From positions 296,306-360,305 of the forward strand of contig OY970126.1 in the NCBI GenBank assembly GCA_963705915.1: a stretch of DNA of 64,000 nt, written 5' to 3'. Position numbers and translations under genes: made by a program. Position 1 is the first letter of the stretch, and every line of letters begins with the position of its first letter. This stretch comes from an uncultured bacterium (GTDB taxonomy: Bacteria > Patescibacteriota > Minisyncoccia > UBA6257 > 2-01-FULL-56-20). The notes beneath the pieces were generated by a model that was not told the DNA's origin, ran no database searches, and saw nothing but the letters and a program-made list of their open reading frames with translations. Below, piece after piece: positions 14,261-44,808 of this stretch.

Positions 14261-14863
14261 CTATTTTTTGAAATTTTTGTCCACAGCCTCCCAATGTACC
14301 ACGCTCCACCACGCCTCAATATAGTCCGGACGCTTGTTTTGATGCTTGAGATAATAGGCGTGCTCCCAAACGTCGAGCCCAAGAATTGGCGTCTGGTTTT
14401 TCATGATTGGGCTGTCTTGGTTCGGAGTCGTCACCACCGCGAGACTTCCCTTGTCGAGCACGAGCCACGCCCATCCGGATCCAAAAACTCCAGCGGCAGC
14501 TTTCGTGAATTCTTCTTTGAACTTGGCGAAGTCGCCGAATGATTTTTTTATTTTATCCGCGAGGTTGCCCGTCGGCTCACCGCCCTCTTTTGGCCCCATG
14601 ATCGTCCAGAAAAAAGAATGATTCGCGTGTCCCCCGCCATGATTTCTTACCGCAGTGCGAATATCCTCCGGCACCGAGTCGATCGAGCTGAGCAATTCCG
14701 CGAGCGGTTTATCCGCAACCTCTGGATGCTTATCGAGCGCTTCGTTCAACTTTGTGACGTACGTTTGATGATGCTTTGTGTGGTGGATTTCCATTGTCTT
14801 CGCATCGATGTATGGTTCGAGCGCATCGTAGGCATAGGACAGTTTTGGAAGTTCATATTTCAT
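14261..14863 (-). CDS. sodA: Fe/Mn superoxide dismutase
   Basis: ORF track 200 aa: [36 protein letters not shown] ... [28 protein letters not shown]. These are canonical Fe/Mn-SOD motifs. Confidence 0.95.
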
Positions 14864-14932
14864 GATTTTAATGATATTTTTCTTGCGGCGTCTATAATTC
14901 TATAATACACTATACGCGGTCGTTCGTTTCAT

Positions 14933-15003
14933 TGGGGGGTCGTCTAACGGTAGGACATGGGACTTTGAATCCCAGAATAAAGGTCCGACTCCTTTCCCCC
15001 CAG
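14933..15003 (+). tRNA. tRNA-Gln (anticodon UUG); unusual T-loop
   Basis: Hand-folded: acceptor UGGGGGG/CCCCCCA (U1-A72), discriminator G73, D-stem GUC/GAC, anticodon stem UGGGA/UCCCA with loop CUUUGAA, T-stem AAAGG/CCUUU. The T-loop UCCGACU is non-canonical (C55). No encoded CCA. Confidence 0.6.
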
Positions 15004-15036
15004 CTCTCTTGTGGATCGACTCGACTGGGAATTGAG

Positions 15037-15255
15037 CTAAAGCTTCTCCCGGAGAAACTCAAAAACGATATAGCCGATAAAGGCGGCGACAATTGCGATG
15101 ATAACATTAGTCACGCTAAAAATATCTTTCAGTGCAACGATTAAGGGTTTTCCATATCCCCTACTACGCGTGTACTCTCCCATCAAAAGATTGGCATAGA
15201 AAAGGAAGATAATAAAAGCCATTTCAACTACCGCTCTGCGGATCTTGTTTTTCAT
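15037..15255 (-). CDS. small two-TM membrane protein, directly downstream of truncated kdpD
   Basis: ORF track 72 aa with two hydrophobic helices. Its start is 9 nt below the kdpD stop. Confidence 0.45.
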   Translation of the reverse strand: MKNKIRRAVVEMAFIIFLFYANLLMGEYTRSRGYGKPLIVALKDIFSVTNVIIAIVAAFIGYIVFEFLREKL

Positions 15256-15263
15256 AGAAATCT

Positions 15264-16376
15264 TTAAATCATGACGATATGCACCTCCGGCAAATTCTGA
15301 ATGAGAAGTTCGGTAATCGATGTATGGAACTTGCCGAATAATGCTTTTTTTCTCGGATGGCCTTGCACGAGATGCGTGACCCCGTTCGCGTGGACGAACT
15401 GTATGAGGGATTGAGCGATGTTGTCGTCTTTCAAGGTAATCATCTCCGCCCCCATGCTTTCGGCAAGCTTCATGATCGCCGCGATCTCATCGTGATGGGG
15501 AGCAAGCGCCTTGCTTTCATCCGCGGCAGTCGAGACATGGACGACATACCACGTCGCGTTCAGCTGCGAAGCCAATCGCGATGCGCTCCGCAGAATCGCT
15601 TCCGCATTCGGTTCCCCGCCGCGAATCCGCACCATTACCTTGTTCAATGCGCTCGGTTTTACGGCGACGTTGAATCTTTCACGCTGCCGTTTGTCGAGAA
15701 GGTTGGCCATCTCGCTCAGCGTAAGCTCTCGCAGCCTCGTAAGATTCTTTGGCGTGAAAAAATTGTTAAGCGCCGTGTCGATGCGGTCAAGCTTGTATAT
15801 TTTGCCGTCTCTCAACCGTTCGATCAGATCATCGGCCTCAATATCGACATTGGTGATGAGGTCGGCCTGTGCCACGACGGAATCGGGAATGCGCTCGGCG
15901 ACCTTAACTCCAGTGGCTTCTTCCACAATATTATAGAGTGATTCAAGATGTTGGATATTGAGTGTCGTAATGACGTTGATACCCGCACCCAGTAATTCTT
16001 CAACGTCCTCGTATCGTTTTTTGTTCTTGCTGCCGGGGGCGTTCGTATGCGCGAGTTCGTCCACCAAAACCACGGTCGGATGTCTTTTAATGACGGCATA
16101 GACATCCATCTCTTTTAGCTCCAAGTTGCCGTGCCTCACAATTCTTGGCGGGACAATCTCCAAACCTTCCGCCTTCACCATTGTGTCGGGGCGGTCATGA
16201 GGCTCCACATAGCCGATAACCACATCCGTGCCGATCTCTTTCAGATGCTGCGCCTTCAAAAGCATGCGGTAGGTTTTTCCAACGCCCGCCGCCGAGCCGA
16301 GATAGACCTTTAGATAGCCACGCTTCTTGCGCTCGCTGAGCTTCAAAATATCGTCGGACGCTTTGCCATTATCCAT
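15264..16376 (-). CDS. kdpD: truncated KdpD: N-terminal KdpD sensor domain plus USP domain only (no TM region, no histidine kinase)
   Basis: ORF track 370 aa: LKVYLGSAAGVGKTYRMLLKAQHL...VVLVDELAHTN (KdpD N-terminal P-loop region), then a USP-like C-terminal half. The ORF ends without HisKA/HATPase domains. Confidence 0.85.
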   Translation of the reverse strand: MDNGKASDDILKLSERKKRGYLKVYLGSAAGVGKTYRMLLKAQHLKEIGTDVVIGYVEPHDRPDTMVKAEGLEIVPPRIVRHGNLELKEMDVYAVIKRHPTVVLVDELAHTNAPGSKNKKRYEDVEELLGAGINVITTLNIQHLESLYNIVEEATGVKVAERIPDSVVAQADLITNVDIEADDLIERLRDGKIYKLDRIDTALNNFFTPKNLTRLRELTLSEMANLLDKRQRERFNVAVKPSALNKVMVRIRGGEPNAEAILRSASRLASQLNATWYVVHVSTAADESKALAPHHDEIAAIMKLAESMGAEMITLKDDNIAQSLIQFVHANGVTHLVQGHPRKKALFGKFHTSITELLIQNLPEVHIVMI

Positions 16377-16399
16377 GTCTACATCATATCAGTCCCTGC

Positions 16400-16996
16400 C
16401 TATTTCTGTATCGGGTATTTTTGGTCGAGCGCCATGTTGAGCATAAGAACGTTCACACCTGGCTCGCCGAAGACATCAATGCTCCTTCCGTCGATATTCT
16501 CATTGATCAGCGCTTGAATGTTCGCGAGGCTGGTATTCCTCGCTTTCGCGACGATGGGTGCTTGAATCGCCGCATTCGCCAAACTGATCTCTGGATCAAG
16601 GCCGCTTGCGGAACCGGTCACGGCGTCCGCAGGTACGGGAGTGGACGTCGAAAGATCGTACTGCGTCCGATATGCCGCAATAGCCTGCTGAATCGTCGTT
16701 GCAAGTTTCTGTGAGGTGGGACCAAGATTGCTGCCACCGGAAGCCGTCGGATCATATCCAGCACCAGCATACGAAGGACGCGAATTGAAATATTGGGGTC
16801 CGGTGAATGTCTGCCCGATAAGCTCCGAGCCAATCACTTGTCCTTGGCCATTCGTAATCAAGCTGCCGTTCGCTTGGGAGGGAAAAAGCGCCTGGCCGAA
16901 GGCCCATACGACGAGCGGATAGACGCCACAGCATATGACCGCGAAGACCAACGTTGCGATGATCGATAATTTGAGTTGTTGAAGGATTTCTTTCAT
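16400..16996 (-). CDS. kdpC: K+-transporting ATPase subunit C
   Basis: ORF track 198 aa, N-terminal TM, KdpC-like. Sits in a kdpFABC arrangement. Confidence 0.9.
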   Translation of the reverse strand: MKEILQQLKLSIIATLVFAVICCGVYPLVVWAFGQALFPSQANGSLITNGQGQVIGSELIGQTFTGPQYFNSRPSYAGAGYDPTASGGSNLGPTSQKLATTIQQAIAAYRTQYDLSTSTPVPADAVTGSASGLDPEISLANAAIQAPIVAKARNTSLANIQALINENIDGRSIDVFGEPGVNVLMLNMALDQKYPIQK

Positions 16997-17001
16997 TGGA
17001 T

Positions 17002-19020
17002 TTACGCAAGGTGAAGCGCCGCAATGAGCATGTCGATCAGTTTGATCCCGATGAATGGCGCGATGAGGCCGCCGACGCCGTAAATGAGAAGATTGATGCG
17101 AAGCACCGTGTCCGCGGGGAGCGCTCGGAACTTCACGCCTTTCAACGCAAGCGGAACGAGGAGAATGATGATGATGGCGTTGAAGATGACGGCGGAAAGG
17201 ATAGCGCTCTGTGGATCATGCAGTCGCAAGATGTTCAACGGCGCGATGACGGGGAAAATCGGAAGGATCATCGCCGGGATGATAGCGAAGTACTTCGAGA
17301 CATCATTTGCGATGCTGAACGTGGTGAGCGCTCCGCGCGTCATGAGCATTTGCTTGCCGATCTCGACTACTTCAATGAGCTTCGTCGGGTTTGAATCAAG
17401 ATCCACCATATTCCCGGCCTCCTTAGCCGCCTGCGTCCCCGTGTTCATCGCGACGCCGACATCGGCTTGAGCGAGTGCTGGCGCATCGTTTGTGCCGTCG
17501 CCGGTCATGGCAACCATCCTGCCGCCCGCCTGTTCCTTGCGGATAAGTGCGAGTTTATCTTCCGGTTTTGCCTCCGCAAGGAAGTCATCGACGCCCGCTT
17601 CTTTCGCAATCGCTGCTGCGGTAAGCGGATTATCGCCCGTAATCATGATCGTCTTGATTCCCATTTCACGGAAAAGCTTGAAGCGTTCGACGAGCCCGCC
17701 TTTGACGATATCCTTCAAATAAATTACACCAAGGATTTTATTCTGCGTTGCAACGACAAGCGGCGTGCCACCGAGCTTTGAAACACGGTCAACTTCCCCT
17801 TGGATTTCATTTGAAAACTTTCCGTGCGACCACGCCTTGATGGCTTGCGCCGCCCCTTTGCGGTACTGCATAAATTCCATATCAAGTCCGCTCATCCTCG
17901 TTTGGGCGCTGAATGGAACGAAAACAGCTTTCGGCATTTCGGTTATTTCCCTGCCGCGGATGCCGAATTGCTTGGCAAGCACGACGATACTTCGTCCTTC
18001 CGGCGTTTCGTCGGCAAGCGACGCAAGTTGCGCGGCATCGGCAAGCTCGTCCATGCTCGTACCGGGTGCTGGAATGAATTCTGCCGCCTCGCGATTGCCG
18101 AGTGTGATCGTTCCTGTTTTATCAAGGAGTAACACGTCGACATCACCCGCGGCCTCGACGGCGCGCCCGCTCATCGCAAGCACGTTGTGCTGGACGAGGC
18201 GGTCAATACCAGCGATGCCAATCGCTGACAGCAATCCGCCAATTGTCGTCGGGATCAAACATACGAGAAGTGCGACGAGTACCGGGACGGAGAAAATTGT
18301 TCCACTGTAAATGCCGAAGAGCCGGAACGTAATGACAACCCACAAGAAAATAATAGTGAGTGCGGAAAGCAGGATGGTGAGTGCGATCTCATTTGGTGTC
18401 TTCTGGCGCTTCGCGCCTTCGACGAGCATTATCATGCGATCAAGGAAGCTTTCGCCGGGGTTTGCGGTGATGAGAACCTTAATCTGGTCCGACAACACTT
18501 TTGTACCGCCCGTTACCGCGCTGCGGTCGCCGCCCGACTCACGGATCACAGGAGCGGATTCGCCGGTGATCGCCGACTCGTCAACGGTGGCGGCGCCCTC
18601 GATCACTTCGCCGTCGCCCGGAATGGTTTCGCCTGCGACAACCAATACGATGTCTCCCTTCCGAAGTTCTTCCGCAGAAACCTGCTGTAACGTCCCATCG
18701 GCTTTGTATTTCAAGCCGAAAAGCTGCGTGCGCGATTTACGGAGCGCGTCGGCCTGAGCTTTCCCGCGACCCTCCGCCATCGCCTCGGCGAAATTGGCGA
18801 AAAGGACCGTAAACCACAACCAGAGGGCGATCTGGATCACAAACCCTTTCGGGCCGCTGTTCAAGAAAATCTCTACTGTCGTTATGATGGCCCCGACAAG
18901 CGTCACGAACATAACCGGATTGCGCACCATCCTTCGCGGATCGAGCTTCGTAAACGCGCTTCCAATTGCCGGAAGAATGATCGCTGAATCGAATATGCTA
19001 CTGGTTCTTTTATTATTCAT
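17002..19020 (-). CDS. kdpB: K+-transporting P-type ATPase subunit B
   Basis: ORF track 672 aa. P-type ATPase motifs [28 protein letters not shown]. Confidence 0.95.
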
Positions 19021-19026
19021 GGATGC

Positions 19027-20751
19027 TTAGAATAGTTTTCCGGCGTGCATGAGGAATTGCTCAACGATAGGACCGAGCGACAATATCGGGAAGAACGTCA
19101 GCGCAGTAATAAGGACAATGACGCCGATGAGCAGGAGAACGAACGTGACGCCGGTTACCGGGAACGAACCCGGACCCATCGCGACGCGCTTTTTCTTTGC
19201 AAGCGATCCGGCGAGCGCCAAGATCGGGATCATCATGAAAAATCTTCCGAAAAGCGCATCGAGACCGATCGTTGTGTTGTACCATACCGTATTCGCAGAA
19301 AGTCCGGCGAAGGCGCTGCCGTTGTTCTCGGCCGCAGAGGTATAGGCGTAGAGTATTTCGCTCAATCCATGCGGGCCGCTATTGTTGAGCCCGGCCAGAC
19401 CCCACGAACTCACCGCCGCCCATGCCGTAAAACCCAGAATGAATATGACGAGAACAAGGACCGAGAGCGCTGCGACTTTTACGTCATAAGCTTCGATCTT
19501 CTTTCCTAAATATTCAGGCGTTCGCCCAATCATAAGCCCGGCGAGGAATACCGTGAGTATGATGTACACGATCATCGTGTAGAGGCCAGAGCCCACGCCA
19601 CCAAAAATAATTTCGTCGAGCTGCATATTTACGAGTGGAACCAACCCCCCAAGTGGGGTGAAAGAATCATGCATTGCATTGACCGCCCCCTCAGACGCAT
19701 CGGTCGTGACGGTCGCAAAAAGCGAGGAGTTGAAAATCCCAAACCTCACCTCTTTTCCCTCCATATTTCCATCGGCAGCAGATATTCCAAGCTGTTGGTG
19801 AATGGGATTGCCCATCTGTTCGGCGTGATAGAGAACCGCAAAACCGGCCAGGAAGACGAGGAGCATCGCGCACCATATCGCCCATCCGTGTTTTTGATTC
19901 CCAACCGCCTTGCCGAAATAGTAAGTAAGACCCGCCCCGATGGCGAAGATGCTCAGCATCTCAAGGAAATTCGTGAGACCGTTCGGATTCTCAAAAGGAT
20001 GGGCTGAGTTGGCATTCATATATCCTCCGCCGTTCGTGCCGATCATTTTAATGGCTTCCTGGGAAGCGAGCGGTCCCTGCGGTATCGTCTGGGTCGTTAC
20101 CCCGCCGTTCGTCTGGACGACATTTGCGGTCGTGTAGCTGTTGAAATTCTGGATCGCGCCCTGTGAAATCAAGACTACTGCGAACACGAAAGCAATCGGC
20201 AAAAGGAGGTAATACGTGGTTCTCACCATATCGGTCCAGAAATTGCCGATGGTCTTGGCCGTATGACGGGCAACACCCCGGACAACCGCGGCGGCAAGCG
20301 CGATGCCCATCGCAGCCGATGCGAAATTATGGATGACGAGCGCAACCATCTGGGAGAAGTACGACATCGTCGCTTCCGGCACGTAGCTCTGCCAATTGGT
20401 GTTCGTCGCGAAGCTGACCGCCGTGTTGAATGCGAGGCTTGGACTTAAATTCGCAAAGTGCTGCGGGTTGAGAGGAAGCCATTGCTGCAGGCGAAGAATG
20501 ATATATGTGAAGACTATTCCAATCAAACTGAAAGCCAGCATTGCAATCGTATACTGTTTCCAATCCTGCTCTTTTTGCGGATCAATACCGAGAAGCTTAT
20601 AGGTAAACCGCTCAAGCGGCTTTAACAGGCGATCGAGAAACGTCTTTCCGTTAGCATCGAGCACCTGGAACAAATAGAGGCCAATCGGCTTCGTGATGAC
20701 GAAGAGGATTCCTACGAAGAGACCGAGTTGTATCCAATCAATAAGCGGCAT
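19027..20751 (-). CDS. kdpA: K+-transporting ATPase subunit A
   Basis: ORF track 574 aa polytopic; MPLIDWIQLGLFVGILFVITKPIGLYLFQVLD is a typical KdpA N-terminus. Confidence 0.95.
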   Translation of the reverse strand: MPLIDWIQLGLFVGILFVITKPIGLYLFQVLDANGKTFLDRLLKPLERFTYKLLGIDPQKEQDWKQYTIAMLAFSLIGIVFTYIILRLQQWLPLNPQHFANLSPSLAFNTAVSFATNTNWQSYVPEATMSYFSQMVALVIHNFASAAMGIALAAAVVRGVARHTAKTIGNFWTDMVRTTYYLLLPIAFVFAVVLISQGAIQNFNSYTTANVVQTNGGVTTQTIPQGPLASQEAIKMIGTNGGGYMNANSAHPFENPNGLTNFLEMLSIFAIGAGLTYYFGKAVGNQKHGWAIWCAMLLVFLAGFAVLYHAEQMGNPIHQQLGISAADGNMEGKEVRFGIFNSSLFATVTTDASEGAVNAMHDSFTPLGGLVPLVNMQLDEIIFGGVGSGLYTMIVYIILTVFLAGLMIGRTPEYLGKKIEAYDVKVAALSVLVLVIFILGFTAWAAVSSWGLAGLNNSGPHGLSEILYAYTSAAENNGSAFAGLSANTVWYNTTIGLDALFGRFFMMIPILALAGSLAKKKRVAMGPGSFPVTGVTFVLLLIGVIVLITALTFFPILSLGPIVEQFLMHAGKLF

Positions 20752-24674: not shown

Positions 24675-26660
24675 GAAAGTATTCGTGCGATTTCCATTTT
24701 CTCGACTTCAGTAGCCTTCAAAATATATTCCGTGTCTTCATCGAATGAACGCATGATCACGCAGGTGATGGCACCAATGAGGCCAATTGCCGCGAGCCAA
24801 AGGATGTCCCACACCAGGGCAAAGCCGAGAAGGAAGACAAAGCCGGAAAGATATATCGCCATCGGCGTGTTCTTTGAAAGCTCGATGTCTTCATATTTTT
24901 GATTTTTCATTTTACCGTTCGGGCCAATCTCGCCATCTTTCTTCATTTCCCAAAACGCATCGCGGCTATGGACAGTGGGCGTCACCGCAAAGTTATAGAA
25001 CGGCACAGGCGACGGTGTTGCCCATTCAAGCGTGTGCCCATTCCACGGATCACCGGTCGTGTCACGATTTTGGTTCCGCTCCTTCACGCTCACCACAACC
25101 TGGATGATCTGCACAATCGCGCCGGCGGCGATGATGAAAACGCCGATTGCCGCAACGATGAAGAGCGGCTGGAAACCGGTCGACGCGTCATAGTGGTCAA
25201 GACGGCGTGTTGCGCCCATGAACCCTAATATATAGAGCGGGGTGAAGGATGTGAAAAATCCTACGAGCCAAAGCCAAAACGCGCGTCTCCCCCATTTTTC
25301 ATTCAGTTTGAAACCGAGCACCTTCGGGAACCAATACGTGATACCGGCGAAAATACCGAAGAGCGCACCGCCAACGATCATGGTGTGAAAATGCGCGACG
25401 AGAAACAGCGTGTTATGCAATTGATAATCCGCAGCCGGCGTCGCGAGCAAGACGCCTGCCATGCCGCCAAACGTGAACGTGCTCACAAATCCCATAAACC
25501 AATACATCGGCGTCATAAAGCGGATGCGCCCGCGCCACATCGTGAGAATCCAATTGAACATTTGCACGCCGGCTGGAATGGCGATGAGCATCGTCGAAAT
25601 GCCAAAGAACGCGTTCACGTCTGCGCCCGCACCCATCGTGAAAAAATGATGCAGCCAAACCAAGCCTGCGAGCGCCGTGATCGAAATCGCGGCGCAGACC
25701 ATGGAGACATAGCCAAATAATCTTTTTGCCGGAAAACGTGGAAACGACCTCGGAGAAAATACCAAACGACGGGATGACAAGGATATAGACTTCGGGATGG
25801 CCCCACATCCAAATGAGATTCACATACATCATCGGATTGCCGCCGAATCCCGACGTAAAGAAATGCATGCCAAAAAACCTATCGAGCCAAAGAAGCCCGG
25901 TCGTCACCGTGAGCATCGGGAATGCCGAAAGGATGAGCGCCGAGCTGCAAAGCGACGTCCAAACGAACATCGGCATCTTCATGAGCGTCATGCCCGGTGC
26001 GCGCATCTTAATGATGGTGACGAGGAAATTGAGGCCGCCAAGCAAGCTGCCGAGGCCGGAGATTTGCAGGCTCCATATCCAATAATCGACGCCCGTGCCC
26101 GGACTATACGCGAGTTCCGAAAGCGGCGGGAGCGAAAGCCATCCGGCCGATGCGAACTGTCCGCCGACGGCAAAGAATGTGTTAATGAGGACCGCGCCGG
26201 CGACGTACAACCAAAATCCGAGCGAGTTCAAAAATGGAAACGCGAGATCGCGCGCGCCGATTTCGAGCGGCACGATGAGATTCATGAGGCCGAACAAAAA
26301 TCCCATCGTCACAAAAAATACCATGATGTCGCCGTGTGCCGTGAAAATCTGCTGGAAATGGCTCGGGTCAAGATACCCCTGCGAATTCCCCACCGACATC
26401 GCCTGCTGAATCCAAATCATGATGGCATCGAGTCCGCCGCGGAAAAGCATCACGGACGCCACAACGATATACATCACCCCGATTTTCTTCGGATCGGTCG
26501 ACGTGAGCCAATCCCTCCAGAGCCACCTCCAACGCTTGTAATACGTGATGACGCCGCCAACGAGCGCCATACCGAGGATGATACTCACCGTCCCTCCGAT
26601 CGTAAACCATTCGTGCGGAAGTGCGCTCCAGGTTAGATTGCCAAAAATAAAATGTTCCAT
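24671..26660 (-). pseudogene. cyoB: cytochrome o ubiquinol oxidase subunit I, interrupted by a +1 frameshift in a T5 (minus-strand A5) run at 25723..25727
   Basis: Two overlapping ORF-track ORFs (25413..26660 and 24671..25780) are both CyoB-like. The 5' frame reads ...[15 protein letters not shown] then junk. The 3' frame reads ...[11 protein letters not shown]... Deleting one A restores [13 protein letters not shown], which matches the E. coli CyoB region FSRKRLFGYTSLV. Confidence 0.85.
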
Positions 26661-26661
26661 G

Positions 26662-27561
26662 TTACATTTGCATGCCTGGCATCGCCATCCCCGGCATCGA
26701 CGATGACGGCATCATATACTTCATCATCACATTATTATAAAGATTCGGATCTACGGAGGAATAATAGGCCGGCGGATTGTAGGTGGACGGCTCGGCAAGC
26801 GTATTGTAGGCGTCTTCGTCGAGCGTGCTCGACATCTGCTTTATCTGCGCAACCCAGATATTAAAGTCCGTCTCCGCGACGGAGTTCGCCTGGAACGTCA
26901 TGCCGGCATAGCCAGCGCCGTTGATTTCCGTATCCTTGCCGGTGAACGTTCCCGTGGACGATGCGATCAAATTGAGCTGGGTTTCCATCGCGGCCATCGC
27001 ATAAATCTGGCTGCCGAGTTGGGGAATCCAAAACGAACTCATCGGCGCGTCCGCGGTGAGCTCAAAATGCACCGGCGTCTGCTCCGGAAACTCAATGTAG
27101 TTCACCGTCGCAATGCCTTGCTGGGGATAGATGAAAAGCCACTTCCACTGGAGCGCAACGACTTCTATGGTGAGCGGCGGCACGGACGAGGCGATCGGCT
27201 GATAGGGATCCACGGCGTGCACGCTCTTCCACGAGAGGACCGCAAGCACGGCAACGAGCATCGCGGGAATCACCCACAGCATGAGCTCACTCGACGCTCC
27301 ATGGTTTTGATTCGGTTCGTAGTTCGCAGCTTTGTTCCCGGCACGATAGCGCCACGCAAACGTAAAAAGCGCAACGAACATCGGCACAACAACCACGAGC
27401 ATCAAAAGCATCGACACTTTTATTGCACTAATCTCCTGCCCCGCAATCGTTCCATCCGGAGCAAAAAGCGCCACGAGACTTCCGCCAATCAAATATTTAA
27501 AAAAGATGACCGCAGCGAGGATGATCGCGGCTCCGATCGCGATTCGGTATTGCACCTTCAT
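26662..27561 (-). CDS. cyoA: cytochrome o ubiquinol oxidase subunit II, with Met-rich C-terminal tail
   Basis: ORF track 334 aa from 27666. The internal Met [21 protein letters not shown] gives a signal/TM N-terminus and removes the overlap with cyoE. The C-terminus ends [16 protein letters not shown]. Confidence 0.85.
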
Positions 27562-27619
27562 TATTGTAATAATAGCATGCGAGGGCGGCTGCCCGCGGCG
27601 CTCCTGCCCAAAACATCCG

Positions 27620-28528
27620 CTACGAAAACTGCACAAACGCGAGCGAGCCAATGATGATCGTGGCAAAAAGCGCCATCAGAACAACGAGCGAGCAGAGAAA
27701 CATGCTCCGCGCCCAACGGACGTCGTCGCGGGTGTAAAACCCGCGAACGCCAACGACAAACCAAACAAACCCAAGAGCGGCCGCGAGAATGCCGTACCAC
27801 GGATTTATGTAACCAAAATACGCGAGGAGAACGGTTGCGTAGATGTAGGCCATTACCAAAGTAACGATCGCAATCTTCGTCGTACGATTGCCGTGCTTTG
27901 CAGGAAGAATCGGAACACCGGCCGCCACATAGTCATGTGACCGACGAATCGAAATGGCAAAAAAATGCGGAATCTGCCAGGTGAATAAAATCATGAAAAG
28001 AAGCACGGCACCGAGATCAAGCTTGTTACTCACGGCCACGTAGCCAACAACGGGAGGCACGGCGCCGGCAACGGCGCCGACCGCAACCGCATACATTGTC
28101 CGCCGCTTCGCCCAGATGGTGTACATAACAACATAAAAGAATGCGCCGATGGCGGCCACGGCAACGGTGAGCAGGTTCGTGCCAATCGCAAGGAGCGCAA
28201 AACCAATCGCGCCGAGTACGATCCCATAGATGATCGCCGCGCGATTCGAAATCCTGTGAGTGACAAGCGCTCGATCCTTTGTGCGCTCCATCTTTCCATC
28301 AATCCCCCGATCGATGTAATTATTAAAAACACATCCGGAAGCAATCACAAAAGAAAGCCCAACGAGGGCAAACAGGAAAAGCTTGAGTGCTGGAATTATC
28401 GGGACGATAACGCTCGTCGACGGATCAACCACTCCCCCCTGAAGCGCAAGCGCAAACCCTCCCGCAAGCAGTACGGCGTTGCCATACACGATACCAGGCT
28501 TTACAAGGCTATAGTAGTCACGAAGCAT
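27620..28528 (-). CDS. cyoE: protoheme IX farnesyltransferase (heme O synthase)
   Basis: ORF track 302 aa; UbiA-family polytopic protein; operon position upstream of cyoABCD. Confidence 0.9.
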   Translation of the reverse strand: MLRDYYSLVKPGIVYGNAVLLAGGFALALQGGVVDPSTSVIVPIIPALKLFLFALVGLSFVIASGCVFNNYIDRGIDGKMERTKDRALVTHRISNRAAIIYGIVLGAIGFALLAIGTNLLTVAVAAIGAFFYVVMYTIWAKRRTMYAVAVGAVAGAVPPVVGYVAVSNKLDLGAVLLFMILFTWQIPHFFAISIRRSHDYVAAGVPILPAKHGNRTTKIAIVTLVMAYIYATVLLAYFGYINPWYGILAAALGFVWFVVGVRGFYTRDDVRWARSMFLCSLVVLMALFATIIIGSLAFVQFS

Positions 28529-38450: not shown

Positions 38451-39389
38451 ATGAAGGTAGACATGCTGGGATTCTTGCTCAGCCAGCAAGAAATGTTCTC
38501 TCACGACGTAACGAGCTCGGGTATTTACCCGGCCATCGACATTTGTCATGTTACCGCCGCCCCGCCCGTTCCTCCCTTTCTCACCTATCAAAAGATAGCA
38601 GAAGAGGCCGCCTGGCTTCGAAGCCAGATTGGAGATCGAGTAGAACGCCTAATCTTTGGGCTTCAGCACCCGCCTCTCGACGCTACAGACGAGAACATGC
38701 ACGACCTTCGATACCATTCGGGGATCTCGTTCTCTACGATCGCCTATCAGGGCGTCAACCGATACGGCGGCGGCTTTGCAGAATTAAACGCCCCATTCAC
38801 CAACGACGGCAGGTCTCTTCTCGAGATGATGGCGCGCGCCGGAATGATCCTTGATCTTTCTCACGCTGGCCACCGAACCGCACGGGGAGCGCTCGACTAT
38901 ATTGAAAAGGTCGGGCTGAATCTTCCGGTCGTTGCAACACACACCGGCTGCCATTCCGTGTATGCGAATAAGAGAAACCTGCCAGACGACGTCCTACTCT
39001 CGATTCGAGATCGGGGCGGCATCGTGGGAATCTACAACGTAACGTTCGGCCTCGATGCATCGGACAATTCACTTGCTCCGTTCATCGCGCACATTCGTCA
39101 TGCGCTACATCTTCTGGGTACAGAAGCGGTAGCGGTAGGGAGCGATGGCATCTACCAAACCTTGGACCTCGAGAAGCAGCAGGAGCTTTTCGCAACGATG
39201 AAAGCAAAAATCGATCCGGACGGCATATTTGGATCCCGGTTTCCTGCCGATCCGGTAAGCCTCAATACGCCGACGCGTATGAATGTAATCGCAGACGCGC
39301 TCCGTAAAGAGTTTCCGGACGATGTCGTAGAAAAGATCGTGGGAGGCAACGCCTACAGATTCCTCAAGAAGAACCACCTTGAATTTTGA
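38451..39389 (+). CDS. membrane dipeptidase (peptidase M19)-like protein
   Basis: ORF track ORF from 38373. The internal ATG at 38451 is preceded by a GGAGG RBS. Body contains ILDLSHAGH, VVATHTGCHSV and GSDG motifs. Confidence 0.75.
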   Translation: MKVDMLGFLLSQQEMFSHDVTSSGIYPAIDICHVTAAPPVPPFLTYQKIAEEAAWLRSQIGDRVERLIFGLQHPPLDATDENMHDLRYHSGISFSTIAYQGVNRYGGGFAELNAPFTNDGRSLLEMMARAGMILDLSHAGHRTARGALDYIEKVGLNLPVVATHTGCHSVYANKRNLPDDVLLSIRDRGGIVGIYNVTFGLDASDNSLAPFIAHIRHALHLLGTEAVAVGSDGIYQTLDLEKQQELFATMKAKIDPDGIFGSRFPADPVSLNTPTRMNVIADALRKEFPDDVVEKIVGGNAYRFLKKNHLEF

Positions 39390-39405
39390 CGCGTCGGTTA
39401 GGCTG

Positions 39406-39451
39406 TGGACACAGGGAGAATCGAACTCCCGCCCCCGCAATGCGAATGCGG
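39406..39451 (-). repeat. partial copy of tRNA-Ala 3' portion (anticodon stem to 3' end, 46 nt, 2 mismatches)
   Basis: Direct comparison with 39481..39551. Confidence 0.8.
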
Positions 39452-39455
39452 CCAA

Positions 39456-39473
39456 GCAGTTTCGTTTGTTTAC
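39456..39473. repeat. 18-nt arm (gcagtttcgtttgtttac) of a perfect inverted repeat bracketing tRNA-Ala
   Basis: Exact reverse complement of 39567..39584. Confidence 0.85.
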
Positions 39474-39480
39474 CTTAATG

Positions 39481-39551
39481 TGGACCCAGGGAGAATCGAA
39501 CTCCCGCCCCCGCAATGCGAATGCGGTGTAATACCACTTTACTATGGGCCC
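39481..39551 (-). tRNA. tRNA-Ala (anticodon CGC)
   Basis: Hand-folded: acceptor GGGCCCA/UGGGUCC with G3:U70, D-stem GUAA/UUAC, anticodon stem CCGCA/UGCGG with loop UUCGCAU, T-stem GGGAG/CUCCC with loop UUCGAUU, discriminator A. Confidence 0.85.
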
Positions 39552-39566
39552 ATGGATGAGAACATA

Positions 39567-39584
39567 GTAAACAAACGAAACTGC
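39567..39584. repeat. 18-nt arm (gtaaacaaacgaaactgc) of the inverted repeat bracketing tRNA-Ala
   Basis: Exact reverse complement of 39456..39473. Confidence 0.85.
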
Positions 39585-39600
39585 GTTTTCAATTGTTAAC

Positions 39601-39638
39601 CGCGCCTCTTAGGCGCGAGCCACTTTACTATGGGCCCA
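39601..39638 (-). repeat. partial copy of tRNA-Ala 5' end (19 nt), followed on the minus strand by a 6-bp GC hairpin (cgcgcc/ggcgcg)
   Basis: 39620..39638 is identical to the 5' end of the intact tRNA. The hairpin is at 39601..39617. Confidence 0.75.
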
Positions 39639-39677
39639 AGATTACAACACCTTACCACTTTTCCTACCGAGGGGTAA

Positions 39678-39705
39678 AGCCGCTGCTCACACGCAACGGC
39701 TTTTT
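39678..39705. terminator. 9-bp stem-loop plus T-tract between smc 3' end and the tRNA cluster; possible bidirectional terminator
   Basis: agccgctgc-tcacac-gcaacggct-ttttc. The plus-strand stem has one C.A mismatch (minus-strand G.U) and the T5 tract is on the plus strand. Confidence 0.35.
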
Positions 39706-39716
39706 CTTTACCCAAG

Positions 39717-41927
39717 CTATTTAGCTCCTGCTACAGTTGTTTCTTCGGCTGGTTCGAGTTTTAGCGAAATGATTTTTGAACTGCCATCTTCCGCGAGGGT
39801 CACGCCATAGAGTATTTCGGCGGCTTCCATGGTTGCGCGGTTGTGCGTGACAACGACGAACTGCGTCCGCTTTGAAAAATCGCGCAGCATGTCGCCGAAG
39901 CGGCGCGCGTTGCGTTCGTCGAGCGGTGCATCGATCTCGTCGAGTACAAGGAATGGCGGCGGACTCACGGAAACCATGGCAAAGAGCGCGGCGATACCGA
40001 CAAGGCTCCGTTCACCGCCTGAAAGCATGTCGAGTGACGTTGTTTTCTTGCGCGGTAATTTCACTTCGATCTCAACGCCACCTTCACCTTCGTCATGCTT
40101 CTCGACTGCCTGTTCCACGGCACCGGCGCCCACATCAGCGTCTTCGTCTCCTTCCGTGGACTCGGTTTTCGCCTTCAAGACCTTGAGCCGTGCGGAGCCG
40201 CCGCCGAACATGAGAGCAAAAAACTTATCGAACTCGTCATTAATCTTATGCAAAGACTTCTCAAATTCACTCCTGATCTTCTCTGAAAGATCGGCCATGA
40301 GCGCCGTGAGATCCCCCACTGCGCGAGTGAGATCTTCCGATTCCTTTTGCAAAAACTGATAGCGCTTTTCCGTGTCTTCGGCTTCCTTCATGAGCGCGGT
40401 GTCGACTTCGCCGATGCTTGCGAGGTCACCGCGCAGACGGAACATCCGCCGTTCCATGTCGGCAAAATCAATATTCGTGCTCCCCGCCGGCAGCGGCACA
40501 TCACGAAATTCTTCGGCACGCCGGCCAGCCTGCGCAAGCTGATGAAGCACTTCCTCGCGCCGCATATCAACACGCTCTTTTTGGAGCAAAAGTTCGCGAT
40601 TGGTTTTTTCCCAGTCATCGAGATGCCCTTGCGCGACCTGCACGTCGGCAACGGCAGCTTTGAAGTTAGCGTAAAATGCCTCTTGTCCGGCTTCGAGCGA
40701 TTTCTCCTGCTCGCGGAGTGATGTGATACTTTTTTCGAGCGTTTGCAAATCTTTCGCCGTCTTTTCGAGGTCGCGTCGGAGCGCTTCGGGCACTTCAGCC
40801 GCAGGACGACCTTCGCGTTCTTCGAGCGCAAAACCGATTTCTTCGAGCACGGTTTCGATTGCTGCCTGCACGCCGAGCGGTTCCTCATTCAACGCCTCTT
40901 CAAGCTCTGCCTTTATTTTCTGAAGGACGTCAACAAAATGATCAACCGACCGGTCGCTCCGCGAACCACCGCTCTTTTTTGCCATTTCGATTTGCGCCTC
41001 AATGCGCCCGAGATCTTTCTGAAGCTCGCTTCGCGATTCGGTGAGCTTACGGATTTCGTCTTTCACTTTTTGCAGTTCTTTTCGTTCTTCGGGTTGGCTT
41101 GCTTCGATCGCCGCCTGGCGCGTTTCGGCGGCCTTCTTTTCTTTCTCAAGATGCTCGTACTGCTTTTTATGCTCTTTCATCTGCGCCTCCACTGCCCCAT
41201 CTTTATTCTGCAGATCGCTCAGCTGCGTTCCAAAAAAATGCCCTTCGAGCGATTTCAATTCCTCTTCGAGCGCGCCGCGGCGTTCCCATCGCCCCGTCTG
41301 ACGCTTGAGGGAACGGAGATGTGGCACGATCTCTTCGATGAGCGCAGTCACCTTGTCAAGATTTATTTTAGAATTTTTTAACCTCCGTTCGGCGTCGGCT
41401 TTTTTGATCTGATATTCCCGAAGGCCGAGGATTTCCTCTATCATTTCGCGGCGTTCGAGGGGCGACGACCGGATGAAAAGATCGCTATCGCCCTGACCGA
41501 TAATAATGAGGCCACGGCTGCCGAGACGGGCTTTTGCAAAAAAATCGATGAGGTCACGCAGTAAGATTTCGGATTTATTTAAAAAATATTTGCTTTGCCC
41601 GTCCCGCCGGATTTCGCGCGTCACGACGACTTCCTCATAGTCAACGGGAAAAAATTTGTTGCTGTTTTCAAAATGCAAACTCGCGCTTGCCATGCCGACG
41701 CGCGGCCTTTTCACGGTCCCTGCAAAAATCAGATCCTCCACCTTGGCGCCCCGGAGATTCTTTGCGTCGCGTTCGCCGAGAAGCCATCGCAGGGCATCGA
41801 CGATATTCGATTTGCCGCTGCCATTCGGACCGACGATTGCCACAATGCCGGCCGGGAATTCGAGCGTGGTTTTGCCAGCAAACGATTTGAATCCGTTCAG
41901 TTCGAGGCGTTTCAGAAAATGTGACAT
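39717..41927 (-). CDS. smc: chromosome segregation protein SMC (short, 736 aa)
   Basis: ORF track. N-terminal Walker A GPNGSGKSNIVDAL, long coiled-coil, C-terminal signature LSGGERSLVGIAALFAM and Walker B LVLDEIDAPLDE. Confidence 0.9.
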   Translation of the reverse strand: MSHFLKRLELNGFKSFAGKTTLEFPAGIVAIVGPNGSGKSNIVDALRWLLGERDAKNLRGAKVEDLIFAGTVKRPRVGMASASLHFENSNKFFPVDYEEVVVTREIRRDGQSKYFLNKSEILLRDLIDFFAKARLGSRGLIIIGQGDSDLFIRSSPLERREMIEEILGLREYQIKKADAERRLKNSKINLDKVTALIEEIVPHLRSLKRQTGRWERRGALEEELKSLEGHFFGTQLSDLQNKDGAVEAQMKEHKKQYEHLEKEKKAAETRQAAIEASQPEERKELQKVKDEIRKLTESRSELQKDLGRIEAQIEMAKKSGGSRSDRSVDHFVDVLQKIKAELEEALNEEPLGVQAAIETVLEEIGFALEEREGRPAAEVPEALRRDLEKTAKDLQTLEKSITSLREQEKSLEAGQEAFYANFKAAVADVQVAQGHLDDWEKTNRELLLQKERVDMRREEVLHQLAQAGRRAEEFRDVPLPAGSTNIDFADMERRMFRLRGDLASIGEVDTALMKEAEDTEKRYQFLQKESEDLTRAVGDLTALMADLSEKIRSEFEKSLHKINDEFDKFFALMFGGGSARLKVLKAKTESTEGDEDADVGAGAVEQAVEKHDEGEGGVEIEVKLPRKKTTSLDMLSGGERSLVGIAALFAMVSVSPPPFLVLDEIDAPLDERNARRFGDMLRDFSKRTQFVVVTHNRATMEAAEILYGVTLAEDGSSKIISLKLEPAEETTVAGAK

Positions 41928-41942
41928 GGCGATGCTTGATGC

Positions 41943-42653
41943 TTATTTGTGATTCTTTTTAAGCGCATTTTTTGCGGCCTCAATCTCGGCTTCTTGCTTG
42001 GACGTCCCCTCGCCTTTAGCGATCATTTTCTCGCCAAAGTATACGCCCATCGTGAAGACGCGTTTGTGGGCGGGGCCGACTTCGTCCAAAACCTTGTACG
42101 TCGGCGTGAGCTTGAATTTATCCTGCACGAATTCTTGCAATTCACTTTTCGCGTCACGGTAGCTCTTGGTTTTCAAAACCTCATCAAGATTTATCATCAC
42201 GAATTTTTTGACGAACGGGCGGGTGGCAGAAAATCCTTGATCGAGATACATCGCGCCGATGAGCGCCTCCATGGCATTTGCAAGAATCACTTCGCGGGCT
42301 TTGCCGGTATCTTTTTTCTCTCCGCGTGACATTAAAATGAATTGCTGTAAACCGATCTGTTCGGCGACGCGCGCGAGGATTTGATAATTCACGAGCGCAG
42401 CGCGAAAAACGGTGAGCTGGCCTTCGGGTTGCGTGGGAAATTTTTCAAAAAGCTCCTCGGAAACCAAAAGTTCAAGGACAGCGTCACCCAAATATTCGAG
42501 ACGCTCGTTGTGCGGCAAACGCCATCGCGGATATTCGTTCAAATATGACCGGTGGGTAATCGCCTCAATCAACAAGTCTTCATTTTTGAACTTCACCCCG
42601 ATCGTTTTCGCGAGCGCTTCGGCCGCGGTCATGGCAGCATTTGTCGAGCTCAT
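41943..42653 (-). CDS. rnc: ribonuclease III
   Basis: ORF track 236 aa. ERLEYLGDAVLEL signature and C-terminal dsRBD. Confidence 0.9.
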   Translation of the reverse strand: MSSTNAAMTAAEALAKTIGVKFKNEDLLIEAITHRSYLNEYPRWRLPHNERLEYLGDAVLELLVSEELFEKFPTQPEGQLTVFRAALVNYQILARVAEQIGLQQFILMSRGEKKDTGKAREVILANAMEALIGAMYLDQGFSATRPFVKKFVMINLDEVLKTKSYRDAKSELQEFVQDKFKLTPTYKVLDEVGPAHKRVFTMGVYFGEKMIAKGEGTSKQEAEIEAAKNALKKNHK

Positions 42654-44562: not shown

Positions 44563-44619
44563 GCCCCTATAGCTCAGCCCGGTAGAGCAGCTCCCTTTAT
44601 GAGAGCCAAGGGCTCTCAT
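44563..44619 (+). repeat. partial copy of tRNA-Lys 5' 36 nt (35/36 identical) followed by a perfect 9-bp hairpin (ATGAGAGCC-AAG-GGCTCTCAT)
   Basis: 44563..44598 versus 44672..44707. Hairpin at 44599..44619. Confidence 0.8.
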
Positions 44620-44636
44620 CGGCTGGTTCGTTCGTT

Positions 44637-44655
44637 GAAAACAAAAGGGCAAATC
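44637..44655. repeat. 19-nt arm (gaaaacaaaagggcaaatc) of an inverted repeat bracketing tRNA-Lys
   Basis: Complement of 44759..44777 with a single G.U-compatible mismatch. Confidence 0.8.
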
Positions 44656-44671
44656 AAATTATGAGCAGTGT

Positions 44672-44745
44672 GCCCCTATAGCTCAGCCTGGTAGAGCAGC
44701 TCCCTTTTAAGGAGATGGTCCCAGGTTCAAATCCTGGTGGGGGCA
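44672..44745 (+). tRNA. tRNA-Lys (anticodon UUU)
   Basis: Hand-folded: acceptor GCCCCUA/UGGGGGC, D-stem GCUC/GAGC, anticodon stem GCUCC/GGAGA (27:43 G.A) with loop CUUUUAA, variable UGGUC, T-stem CCAGG/CCUGG with loop UUCAAAU, discriminator A. Confidence 0.85.
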
Positions 44746-44758
44746 CACTGCCCGGAAT

Positions 44759-44808
44759 GATTTGTCCTTTTGTTTTCACCTCACTGCCAGCCGTAAGGAG
44801 ATGGTCCC
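44759..44808 (+). repeat. second arm of the tRNA-Lys-flanking inverted repeat (44759..44777) followed by a 15-nt internal tRNA-Lys fragment (44794..44808)
   Basis: gatttgtccttttgttttc; then taaggagatggtccc, identical to tRNA positions ~36-50. Confidence 0.75.

Follow-up and report, generated by a model that had tools for sequence, protein, structure and literature searches.

The stretch of DNA considered here, referred to throughout as the window, is a 64-kb segment of contig OY970126.1 from an uncultured bacterium of the phylum Patescibacteriota, and it harbors a tRNA-Ala(CGC) gene that is embedded in an unusual set of repeats. Coordinates are positions in the window, and the tRNA-Ala locus is read on the minus strand, from 39638 to 39404. 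Along this strand are found a short copy of the 5' end of the tRNA (the outer 5' half), a small GC-rich hairpin, one arm of a perfect inverted repeat, the intact inner tRNA, the complementary arm, and finally a longer copy of the 3' portion of the tRNA (the outer 3' half). The hairpin is separated from arm 1 by 16 nt, arm 1 from the tRNA by 15 nt, and the tRNA from arm 2 by 7 nt, and only 28 nt lie between the tRNA and its 3' copy. The segment that runs from the hairpin to the right junction is called the cassette. Its features are collected in Table 1, together with those of a tRNA-Lys(TTT) locus that shares the same organization.

Table 1. Positions of the features at the two nested tRNA loci of the window and of the genes beside the tRNA-Ala locus
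Feature	Positions	Strand	Remarks
Intact inner tRNA-Ala(CGC)	39481-39551	-	Rfam RF00005, 65.6 bits; ARAGORN 39480-39551
Outer tRNA-Ala 5' half	39620-39638	-	tRNA positions 1-18 plus base -1; 19/19 identical to inner tRNA
GC hairpin, CGCGCC/TAAGA/GGCGCG	39600-39618	-	proposed left end of inserted cassette; CGCGCC (39617-39612) pairs with GGCGCG (39606-39601)
Arm 1 (GCAGTTTCGTTTGTTTAC)	39567-39584	-	promoter spacer plus first 3 bases of -10 hexamer
Arm 2 (GTAAACAAACGAAACTGC)	39456-39473	-	exact complement of arm 1; 18 nt, 100% complementary
Right junction TTGG, cassette/outer 3' half	39452-39455	-	(T/G)GG or TGT type junctions recurrent in relatives
Outer tRNA-Ala 3' half	39404-39451	-	tRNA positions 27-73 plus a few bases beyond the discriminator; 48 nt, 98%, 1 mismatch
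Cassette-internal sigma-70-like promoter, TTGAAA-17-TACTAT	39564-39592	-	predicted by consensus scan
Outer (older) tRNA promoter, TTTACC-18-TAAGGT	39649-39678	-	predicted; weak or decayed in this genome; not picked up by consensus scan
smc	39717-41927	-	upstream flank of tRNA-Ala locus
rnc (RNase III)	41943-42653	-	
Nested tRNA-Lys(TTT), second instance in the window	44563-44808	+	same architecture as tRNA-Ala
Outer tRNA-Lys 5' half	44563-44598	+	tRNA positions 1-35
tRNA-Lys hairpin	44599-44619	+	9 bp
Stem closing the tRNA-Lys insert, CGGCTGG/CCAGCCG	44620-44626 / 44787-44793	+	7 bp
tRNA-Lys internal promoter-like TTGAAA-16-AATTAT	44635-44662	+	only promoter-like match at the locus; overlaps arm 1
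tRNA-Lys arms	44636-44656 / 44758-44778	+	21 nt; further leader-trailer pairing continuous with acceptor stem
Inner tRNA-Lys(TTT)	44672-44746	+	
Decayed outer tRNA-Lys 3' half	44794-44808	+	15 nt; starts exactly at position 36

The inner tRNA-Ala carries the G3:U70 pair, and its CCA end is not encoded. The outer pieces correspond to positions 1-18 and 27-73 of the same tRNA; positions 19-26 are missing, and thus no D stem can form. The single mismatch of the outer 3' half, G68T, breaks the outer acceptor pair 5:68, and the region 39406-39473 gives a sub-threshold tRNA match of 26.1 bits with Rfam. An earlier note on this DNA had described most of this anatomy from the letters alone, and its 19-nt copy of the tRNA 5' end (39638-39620), its 6-bp GC hairpin (39617-39601) and its exactly complementary 18-nt arms were all recovered on re-alignment, the tRNA itself being identified by both ARAGORN and Rfam. 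The 3' copy is likewise present, at the length and mismatch count of Table 1 rather than the 46 nt and two mismatches first given.

Chance can be excluded as the origin of this layout, since each motif of the locus has exactly two matches in the window against 0.01-0.2 expected, the arms are among the highest ranking inverted repeats, and the folding of the minus-strand segment reaches z = -5.2 against shuffles. When all local inverted repeats of the 64 kb are ranked, the tRNA-Lys arms come first and the tRNA-Ala arms second. The idea that long palindromes are generally abundant in this genome was rejected for the window on the grounds that the two tRNA arm pairs are its top two local inverted repeats. 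Searches with Rfam, over the window at the gathering threshold and over both loci at E values of up to 10, returned tRNA matches only, with no intron, ribozyme or cis element.

The cassette appears to harbor its own promoter. The internal sigma-70-like sequence is the only promoter-like match within 39300-39800, the tRNA starts 12 nt past its -10 hexamer, and the -35/-10 arrangement is kept in most of 15 aligned Ala cassettes from related genomes. Arm 1 coincides with the spacer of this predicted promoter, and the main transcript should therefore be devoid of arm 1. The second, outer promoter is positionally equivalent to a TTTACC-17-TATCAT element that directly precedes the un-nested tRNA-Ala in four relatives (L009-L012), in comparison with which the version in the window is degenerate. 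The outer 5' half occupies the place behind the outer promoter where the start of a tRNA would be expected, and a read-through RNA from this weaker upstream promoter could occur. The GC hairpin is also conserved in the 15 cassettes, with compensatory C-G to T-A changes and a total of 109 Watson-Crick and 6 G-U pairs. As a candidate terminator the hairpin was rejected: no T run follows it, and a terminator scan found nothing at either locus of the window.

The tRNA-Lys(TTT) locus mirrors this organization, with an outer promoter also preceding the nested unit, and differs in the place of the split. Whereas the tRNA-Ala site lies in the D loop, after G18, tRNA-Lys is divided within the anticodon between positions 35 and 36, with no base lost or duplicated, and the insert has the boundaries U35 / ... 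G / U36, as it also does in most relatives. Nested tRNA-Lys genes are found in relatives L002, L028 and L049, and right-hand remnants in L010, L030 and L035, while fragments plus arms also occur at tRNA-Arg (L037/L038) and possibly at tRNA-Ser (L044). The tRNA-Gln gene of the window has no nested fragments or arms. The Lys cassettes of L002, L028 and L049 are without a convincing -10 hexamer, and the tRNA in these cases therefore probably depends on the outer promoter, which would place both arms in one RNA.

Two of these relatives show peculiarities of their own. In L028 the inner tRNA-Lys (11581-11654, minus strand) has a G at the normally invariant U33, and both outer tRNA-Lys halves are perfect and, if joined, would give a normal anticodon loop; the G33 may stem from an error of sequencing, or it may hint at a role of the outer gene in this genome. 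In L010 (tRNA-Lys at 37-111), some 47-165 nt downstream, the T loop of the outer 3' half is itself split by some 84 nt of inserted sequence, in which there is a 17-bp palindrome and no tRNA. The D loop, the anticodon loop and the T loop, all three loops of the tRNA, have thus been observed as insertion points.

The distribution of the layout was followed in two samples of related genomes. The first comprised 25 loci anchored on SMC (L001-L025) from Candidatus Paceibacterota/Parcubacteria, with 43-83% SMC protein identity, matches that place the window in a bacterium of the candidate phyla radiation. The second was made up of 25 metagenome loci, picked up by an Ala anticodon arm that is present in duplicate. 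Among the SMC-anchored loci the full nested layout is present in L002 and L004, and right-hand remnants, in which arm 2 is followed by an intact or decayed 3' copy at a spacing of 26-30 nt, are present in L001, L010, L011, L013 and L024. Loci L012 and L023 have a plain tRNA-Ala gene directly behind a promoter, with no arms. The metagenome scan yielded the full layout in 12 of its 25 loci (L028, L030, L031, L035, L041-L044 and L047-L050), along with five partial cases (L032, L033, L034, L036 and L040) and three of a more distant lineage (L037-L039). The same architecture is thus observed at about 20 related Paceibacterota loci, and is therefore not a one-off rearrangement. The spacing from the tRNA to the 3' copy is constant, at 26-30 nt, in more than 20 loci whose hosts share 66-83% SMC identity. 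Two of the loci with the layout lie on large contigs, of 913 kb in L002 and 15 kb in L028, and an assembly artefact is in practice excluded.

Some of these loci are more elaborate still. L044 is doubly nested: a complete inner unit, which has a disrupted tRNA of its own, lies within a further, outer arm pair and 3' half. L041 contains two successive modules of arm 2 and 3' half. The tRNA has never been observed inverted relative to its own fragments. L043 and L033 have the same sequence from the tRNA to 248 nt beyond it, their identity upstream is only about 64%, and the left half is found in L043 only; the tRNA gene here forms a sharp recombination breakpoint between lineages.

The nature of the outer pieces is best revealed by relatives in which they differ from the inner tRNA. 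In L035 the outer pieces have the acceptor strands GGGCCC/TGGGTCC and the T stem GGGAG/CTCCC, where the inner tRNA has GGGCTC/TGAGTCC and GCGAG/CTCGC. In L048 the outer gene has A7:T66 and GTAA in the D stem, against G7:C66 and GTTA/TAAC in the inner one, and in L044 the pieces of the middle layer, GGGCCAA/TTGGTCC, pair perfectly with one another, the inner tRNA having GGGCCCA/TGGGTCC. The outer gene of L039 has a GCTCAGTTGGCTAGA D arm that is entirely unlike the inner one. The differences in L035, L048 and L044 thus fall mainly at positions that pair with each other, which argues against duplication in situ followed by drift. Separated and non-functional relics cannot gain compensatory changes, and the outer pieces are therefore the two halves of one formerly functional gene, into which a segment with another allele has come to lie. 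The 5' half, moreover, lies directly behind the resident promoter, where un-nested relatives such as L012 and L024 have the tRNA itself, and the outer halves are decayed or shortened in most loci, the 15-nt Lys 3' half of the window included. They are best read as pseudogene halves, the putative relic of a disrupted gene, and not as a split tRNA. The suggestion of a split or permuted tRNA is accordingly not borne out: the pieces stand in the normal order, 5' then 3', at one locus, they encode no complete tRNA in either locus of the window, and in relatives they decay freely. No bulge-helix-bulge motif was identified, although no formal search for that motif was made.

To examine the complementary arms, 14 distinct cassettes were aligned without gaps over arm 1, the tRNA and arm 2, the spacers having been removed. 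In the resulting covariation table the rows for the arm helix, the D helix and the anticodon helix are the usable ones, the columns of the acceptor and T stems being off by one base. In the arm helix 16 of the 18 pairs are changed on both sides and 98.8% of the cells are paired, a level reached by none of 500 shuffles. Cognate arms are complementary at 16-17 of 17 positions, compared with 7.4 for non-cognate pairs, and in 15 cassettes the arms form perfect Watson-Crick runs of 16-22 bp, the exception being L041, with a single U:G interruption. G-U wobbles make up just 2 of 252 cells in the Ala arms, while in the anticodon stem of the same tRNAs one pair is G-U in 7 of 14 sequences. The non-Watson-Crick positions of 23 leader-trailer helices comprise 9 G-U, 6 A-C and 19 others, and so display no preference for G-U. 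Taken with the promoter overlap, this lack of G-U bias suggests that the complementarity is produced or homogenized in DNA, and makes selection on an RNA helix less likely; the pattern points to arms that are made at the DNA level rather than selected in RNA.

The age of the cassettes can be set against that of their hosts. The four-fold degenerate sites of smc are only 38-62% identical between hosts, which is near saturation. The non-coding left part of the cassette, from the hairpin to the -10 hexamer, is nonetheless identical at 56 of 56 positions between L002 and L035, where the four-fold sites are 52% identical, and between L002 and L028, whose SMC proteins share 70% of their amino acids, its identity is 88%. 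In L002 and L035 the identical cassette sits inside different outer alleles, and no more than 8 nt leftward of the junction the sequences already differ, a length insufficient for a RecA-type crossover. By this comparison the cassette appears either much younger than the divergence of its hosts or unusually strongly constrained. Different cassette lineages have freely varying arm sequences, and for this reason we favor a recent horizontal spread in which insertion is precise.

The reading that we prefer, to which we would assign a probability of roughly 0.6, is that the locus consists of a promoter-bearing tRNA-Ala(CGC) cassette nested in an older cognate gene, and that the cassette is a small replacement element without open reading frames (ORFs), which spreads horizontally and carries palindromic arms that are made at the DNA level. 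Its parts from left to right are the GC hairpin, a predicted sigma-70-type promoter, the tRNA, and a trailer segment in which the spacer of that promoter is repeated as its reverse complement. The older tRNA-Ala is interrupted in the D loop, and what is left of it, positions 1-18 before the cassette and 27-73 behind it, is a relic without function. Insertion would occur precisely, at loop-coding positions of the cognate tRNA gene, and would be tolerated because a working replacement is brought along, the inserting enzyme presumably being supplied in trans. Most transcripts of the inner tRNA would start at the internal promoter, with RNase P, trimming of the 3' end and the addition of CCA completing its maturation. 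The arms may be made, or kept identical, in DNA through a fold-back or hairpin single-stranded intermediate, or else through quasi-palindrome template switching, and only in a read-through RNA from the outer promoter would they present an 18-bp duplex to RNase III. Later deletions between direct repeats, namely between the 5' half and the tRNA 5' end or between the 3' part of the tRNA and the 3' half, would strip either side, and recombination of this kind could explain the orphan arm 2 and 3' half seen in L001 and L033. Because the cassette regenerates its own target, repeated invasion could follow and give rise to loci that resemble Russian dolls. A broader proposal, that these are members of an undescribed class of ORF-less, self-replacing tRNA cassettes of the candidate phyla radiation (CPR), inserted precisely into loops via a fold-back or single-stranded intermediate and a trans-acting enzyme, open to re-invasion and spread among the Paceibacterota, is put forward tentatively, and we think it somewhat more apt to fail than to hold.

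A number of observations weigh against the preferred reading. The outer and inner copies of the window are nearly identical to one another, and the argument for insertion consequently rests on the relatives; for some of these, such as L035 and L048, the mixing of alleles by homologous recombination between nested loci could explain some of the differences between outer and inner genes. Selection, and not recent transfer, could account for how well the cassette is conserved. In Pfam searches, about 40 of the 58 ORFs of the window and the surroundings of the related loci examined yielded no transposase, integrase, reverse transcriptase or HNH/homing endonuclease. Ala and Lys cassettes share no conserved hairpin or arm sequence, which is awkward for a sequence-specific transposase, the arms do not lie at the extreme ends of the inserted segment, and they are unique in the 64-kb window, with no dispersed copies of the kind expected for a typical miniature inverted-repeat transposable element (MITE). 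Three pattern scans of viral contigs, for the Ala anticodon-arm duplication, the junction of Ala 5' half and hairpin, and the nested Lys unit, gave zero matches, and blastn of the 246-nt unit against phage and plasmid collections found no match.

Other accounts of the locus have to be set beside the idea of a replacing cassette. The arms might form a functional leader-trailer helix in RNA, an RNase III stem that releases tRNA-Ala from a long precursor, with the partial copies incidental. The earlier note had raised this idea by likening the arms to an rRNA processing stem with rnc close at hand, and in part the likeness holds: a perfect 18-bp helix does enclose the tRNA in a segment with a marked tendency to fold, the arms covary strongly, the RNase III gene does lie 2.3 kb away and its product has Ribonuclease_3 and dsrm domains, and in the Lys cassettes that seem to be without a -10 hexamer both arms would probably share one RNA. 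On balance we consider this account rather unlikely. Arm 1 lies inside the internal promoter, so that the main transcript should start downstream of it, and the outer promoter of the window is degenerate; the near-absence of G-U from the Ala arms and the lack of a G-U bias elsewhere (9/6/19) are unlike selected RNA helices; and the un-nested relatives L012 and L023 have the same tRNA without any arms. An origin in situ, without any mobility, would accommodate complementarity that looks DNA-made. Here, fold-back or template switching at the inverted repeat of the acceptor stem would make arm 2 and the 3' copy, the leader and promoter being copied as their reverse complement behind the tRNA before the template was re-entered inside the tRNA, and a second event would make the 5' copy. 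The mirror symmetry of tRNA-Lys, which is continuous from the acceptor stem outward through leader and trailer, and the near-identity of outer and inner copies in the window would both fit, yet we regard such an origin, and the route proposed for it, as improbable. It cannot yield the compensatory differences of L044, L039, L048 and L035, it leaves a fully identical cassette left part between hosts at 52% four-fold identity unexplained, as it does the hairpin and the 5' half behind the resident promoter, and the left part would need an independent event that happened to complement the right part.

The constant spacing of 26-30 nt bears on a further possibility, that the repeats are scars of classical tRNA-targeted integrative elements, whose 3' and 5' parts stem from separate integrations and whose bodies were later deleted in this reduced genome. 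Random deletions would not be expected to leave such a spacing in more than 20 loci, nor remnants on left and right that are perfectly complementary; no integrase was found in the ORFs scanned, and the tRNA-Lys split is clean at 35/36, with no duplicated core. In favor of such scars are the direct repeat of 48 nt, which begins in the anticodon stem, extends slightly beyond the tRNA and is the classical att signature, an ORF of 211 amino acids between tRNA-Ala and the 3' fragment in L006 (6380-7127, minus strand), different small ORFs between the tRNA and smc in L003 (6322-6666, 114 aa) and L005 (6376-6729, 117 aa), and a documented archaeal element that leaves a 5' tRNA fragment (PMC3293823). 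We hold integration scars to be very improbable, and the contention of the earlier note that a simple integrase duplication is insufficient is upheld by the 5' fragment, by the 28 nt between the tRNA and its 3' copy and by the lack of a recombinase in the roughly 40 of 58 window ORFs scanned. It is almost certainly wrong, finally, to treat the outer gene as functional, as a split or intron-containing tRNA whose halves are joined via the arms with the inner tRNA inside the intron. The Lys locus offers this notion its best footing, given the lossless 35/36 split, the short stem that closes the insert exactly at the junctions, an insert that follows U and usually ends in G like the group I introns of Patescibacteria (PMC13011429), and the perfect outer halves beside a G33 inner tRNA in L028. 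In tRNA-Ala, however, the absence of 19-26 precludes a D stem, the outer halves are decayed or shortened at most loci, even an E value of 10 brings up no intron or ribozyme family, the insert apart from its tRNA measures only about 100-120 nt, and the halves are in normal, non-permuted order.

The nearest known classes for the replacing cassette are the tRNA-targeted integrative elements and the miniature palindromic elements. As with the att sites of phages, integrative conjugative elements and genomic islands, the target is a tRNA gene, a working tRNA is restored, and a direct repeat of the 3' part, here of 48 nt, results. The differences are that a whole tRNA with its promoter, and not a 3' segment alone, is brought in, that a 5' fragment is also left, that the insert is about 190 nt long without a recombinase gene, that insertion is at the D loop (Ala) or at 35/36 (Lys) with no duplicated core, and that nesting is recursive. 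The closest single precedent is in the archaeon Caldiarchaeum subterraneum, where a 5' tRNA fragment upstream of a complete tRNA of the same identity has been ascribed to an inserted element; the intervening 1.8 kb encode a recombinase, and the tRNAs have archaeal introns (Sugahara et al. 2012, PMC3293823). In the present case the host is bacterial, the intervening 68 nt are ORF-less, and palindromic arms surround the tRNA.

The Correia elements of Neisseria and the palindromic elements of Rickettsia are small, ORF-less and built on inverted repeats, those of Rickettsia being inserted inside genes; such elements can carry promoters, yield substrates for RNase III and sit at tolerated positions of genes. 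In the present cassettes, by comparison, the arm sequence varies from copy to copy and occurs nowhere else in the window, a complete tRNA gene is carried as cargo, insertion is into the cognate tRNA gene, and there is no target-site duplication at the Ala site. A MITE or fold-back element would have terminal inverted repeats and no ORF. The cassette is ORF-less and does contain an inverted repeat, but this repeat is not terminal, the left arm being preceded by the hairpin and the -35 region, and the combination of dispersed copies, conserved ends and target-site duplication that marks a MITE was not found within the 64 kb, the Ala and Lys arms being unrelated. The leader-trailer helices of rRNA operons similarly form a long covarying helix from the flanks of a stable RNA, and differ from the present arms, in which one strand overlaps a promoter, G-U is not tolerated, and orthologous tRNA genes that are not nested have no such helix. 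Split and permuted tRNAs, such as those of Nanoarchaeum, Caldivirga and Cyanidioschyzon, share halves that are separated by sequence with complementary, juxtaposing flanks, whereas here the outer halves appear incomplete (Ala) or decayed (Lys), with a complete and apparently functional tRNA between them. Group I introns at position 35/36 are known from tRNA-Asn and tRNA-Asp of Patescibacteria, and both this position and their U...G boundaries coincide with the tRNA-Lys split (PMC13011429). No match to Intron_gpI, and hence to a group I core, was obtained at either locus, at the gathering threshold or at E values of up to 10. Full-text literature searches turned up no paper in which nested tRNA cassettes are described.

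tRNA genes are a classic target of mobile DNA. The known elements of this kind are kilobases long and encode their own recombinase, and what they restore of the tRNA is only the end that was displaced. In the arrangement proposed here, a piece of about 190 nt with the tRNA as its only gene would replace the whole target and leave both old halves behind as fossils, and this would have happened time and again, in several tRNA identities and in many species of one phylum, whose genomes are tiny and whose tRNAs are single-copy. If the cassettes are indeed mobile, they pursue a minimal selfish strategy, in which the element carries the very gene that it destroys, and they provide datable fossils of past tRNA alleles as well as a route for the horizontal replacement of tRNA genes. 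There are also consequences for annotation, in that the partial copies give sub-threshold tRNA matches that could be mistaken for split or intron-containing tRNAs, and the perfect arms could be mistaken for regulatory or processing elements of RNA.

A second type of leader is found at tRNA-Ala and tRNA-Val genes of the related genomes (L001, L002, L007, L009, L010, L012, L013, L020, L035, L036 and L040). It begins with the first 6-9 nt of the tRNA, followed by a hairpin that is closed by their near-complement, CCCTCGCTCG, a long perfect palindrome, CTCGCTTC and the tRNA. Short direct repeats, CTCGCT, stand on both sides of the palindrome, whose sequence is completely different between the close relatives L002 and L035. 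A related motif, TTCGCT, flanks the arms of Lys cassettes.

Upstream, the tRNA-Ala locus of the window is flanked by smc, with rnc, nusB and rnhB further up, and downstream by the gene for an M19-like dipeptidase. tRNA-Ala(CGC) adjoins smc on either strand in the SMC-anchored loci, on the same strand in 10 and on the opposite strand in 8. An invertible segment, which this variation brought to mind, was rejected, as in L004 the whole unit, including the outer halves, is flipped together. The 3' side of tRNA-Ala is a variable islet across species; the 211-aa ORF of L006 has no Pfam match, and the 3' tRNA fragment follows directly after it. Elsewhere in the window, the stretches 14261-20751 and 25413-28528 encode an Fe/Mn superoxide dismutase and, for the uptake of potassium, KdpD and KdpC, with adjacent large ORFs that are probably KdpB/KdpA. 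To our knowledge, respiratory-type oxidase genes are uncommon in CPR genomes, and the same stretches contain a heme-copper oxidase set, with a COX1-family subunit, a subunit with a COX aromatic-rich motif and a UbiA-family prenyltransferase.

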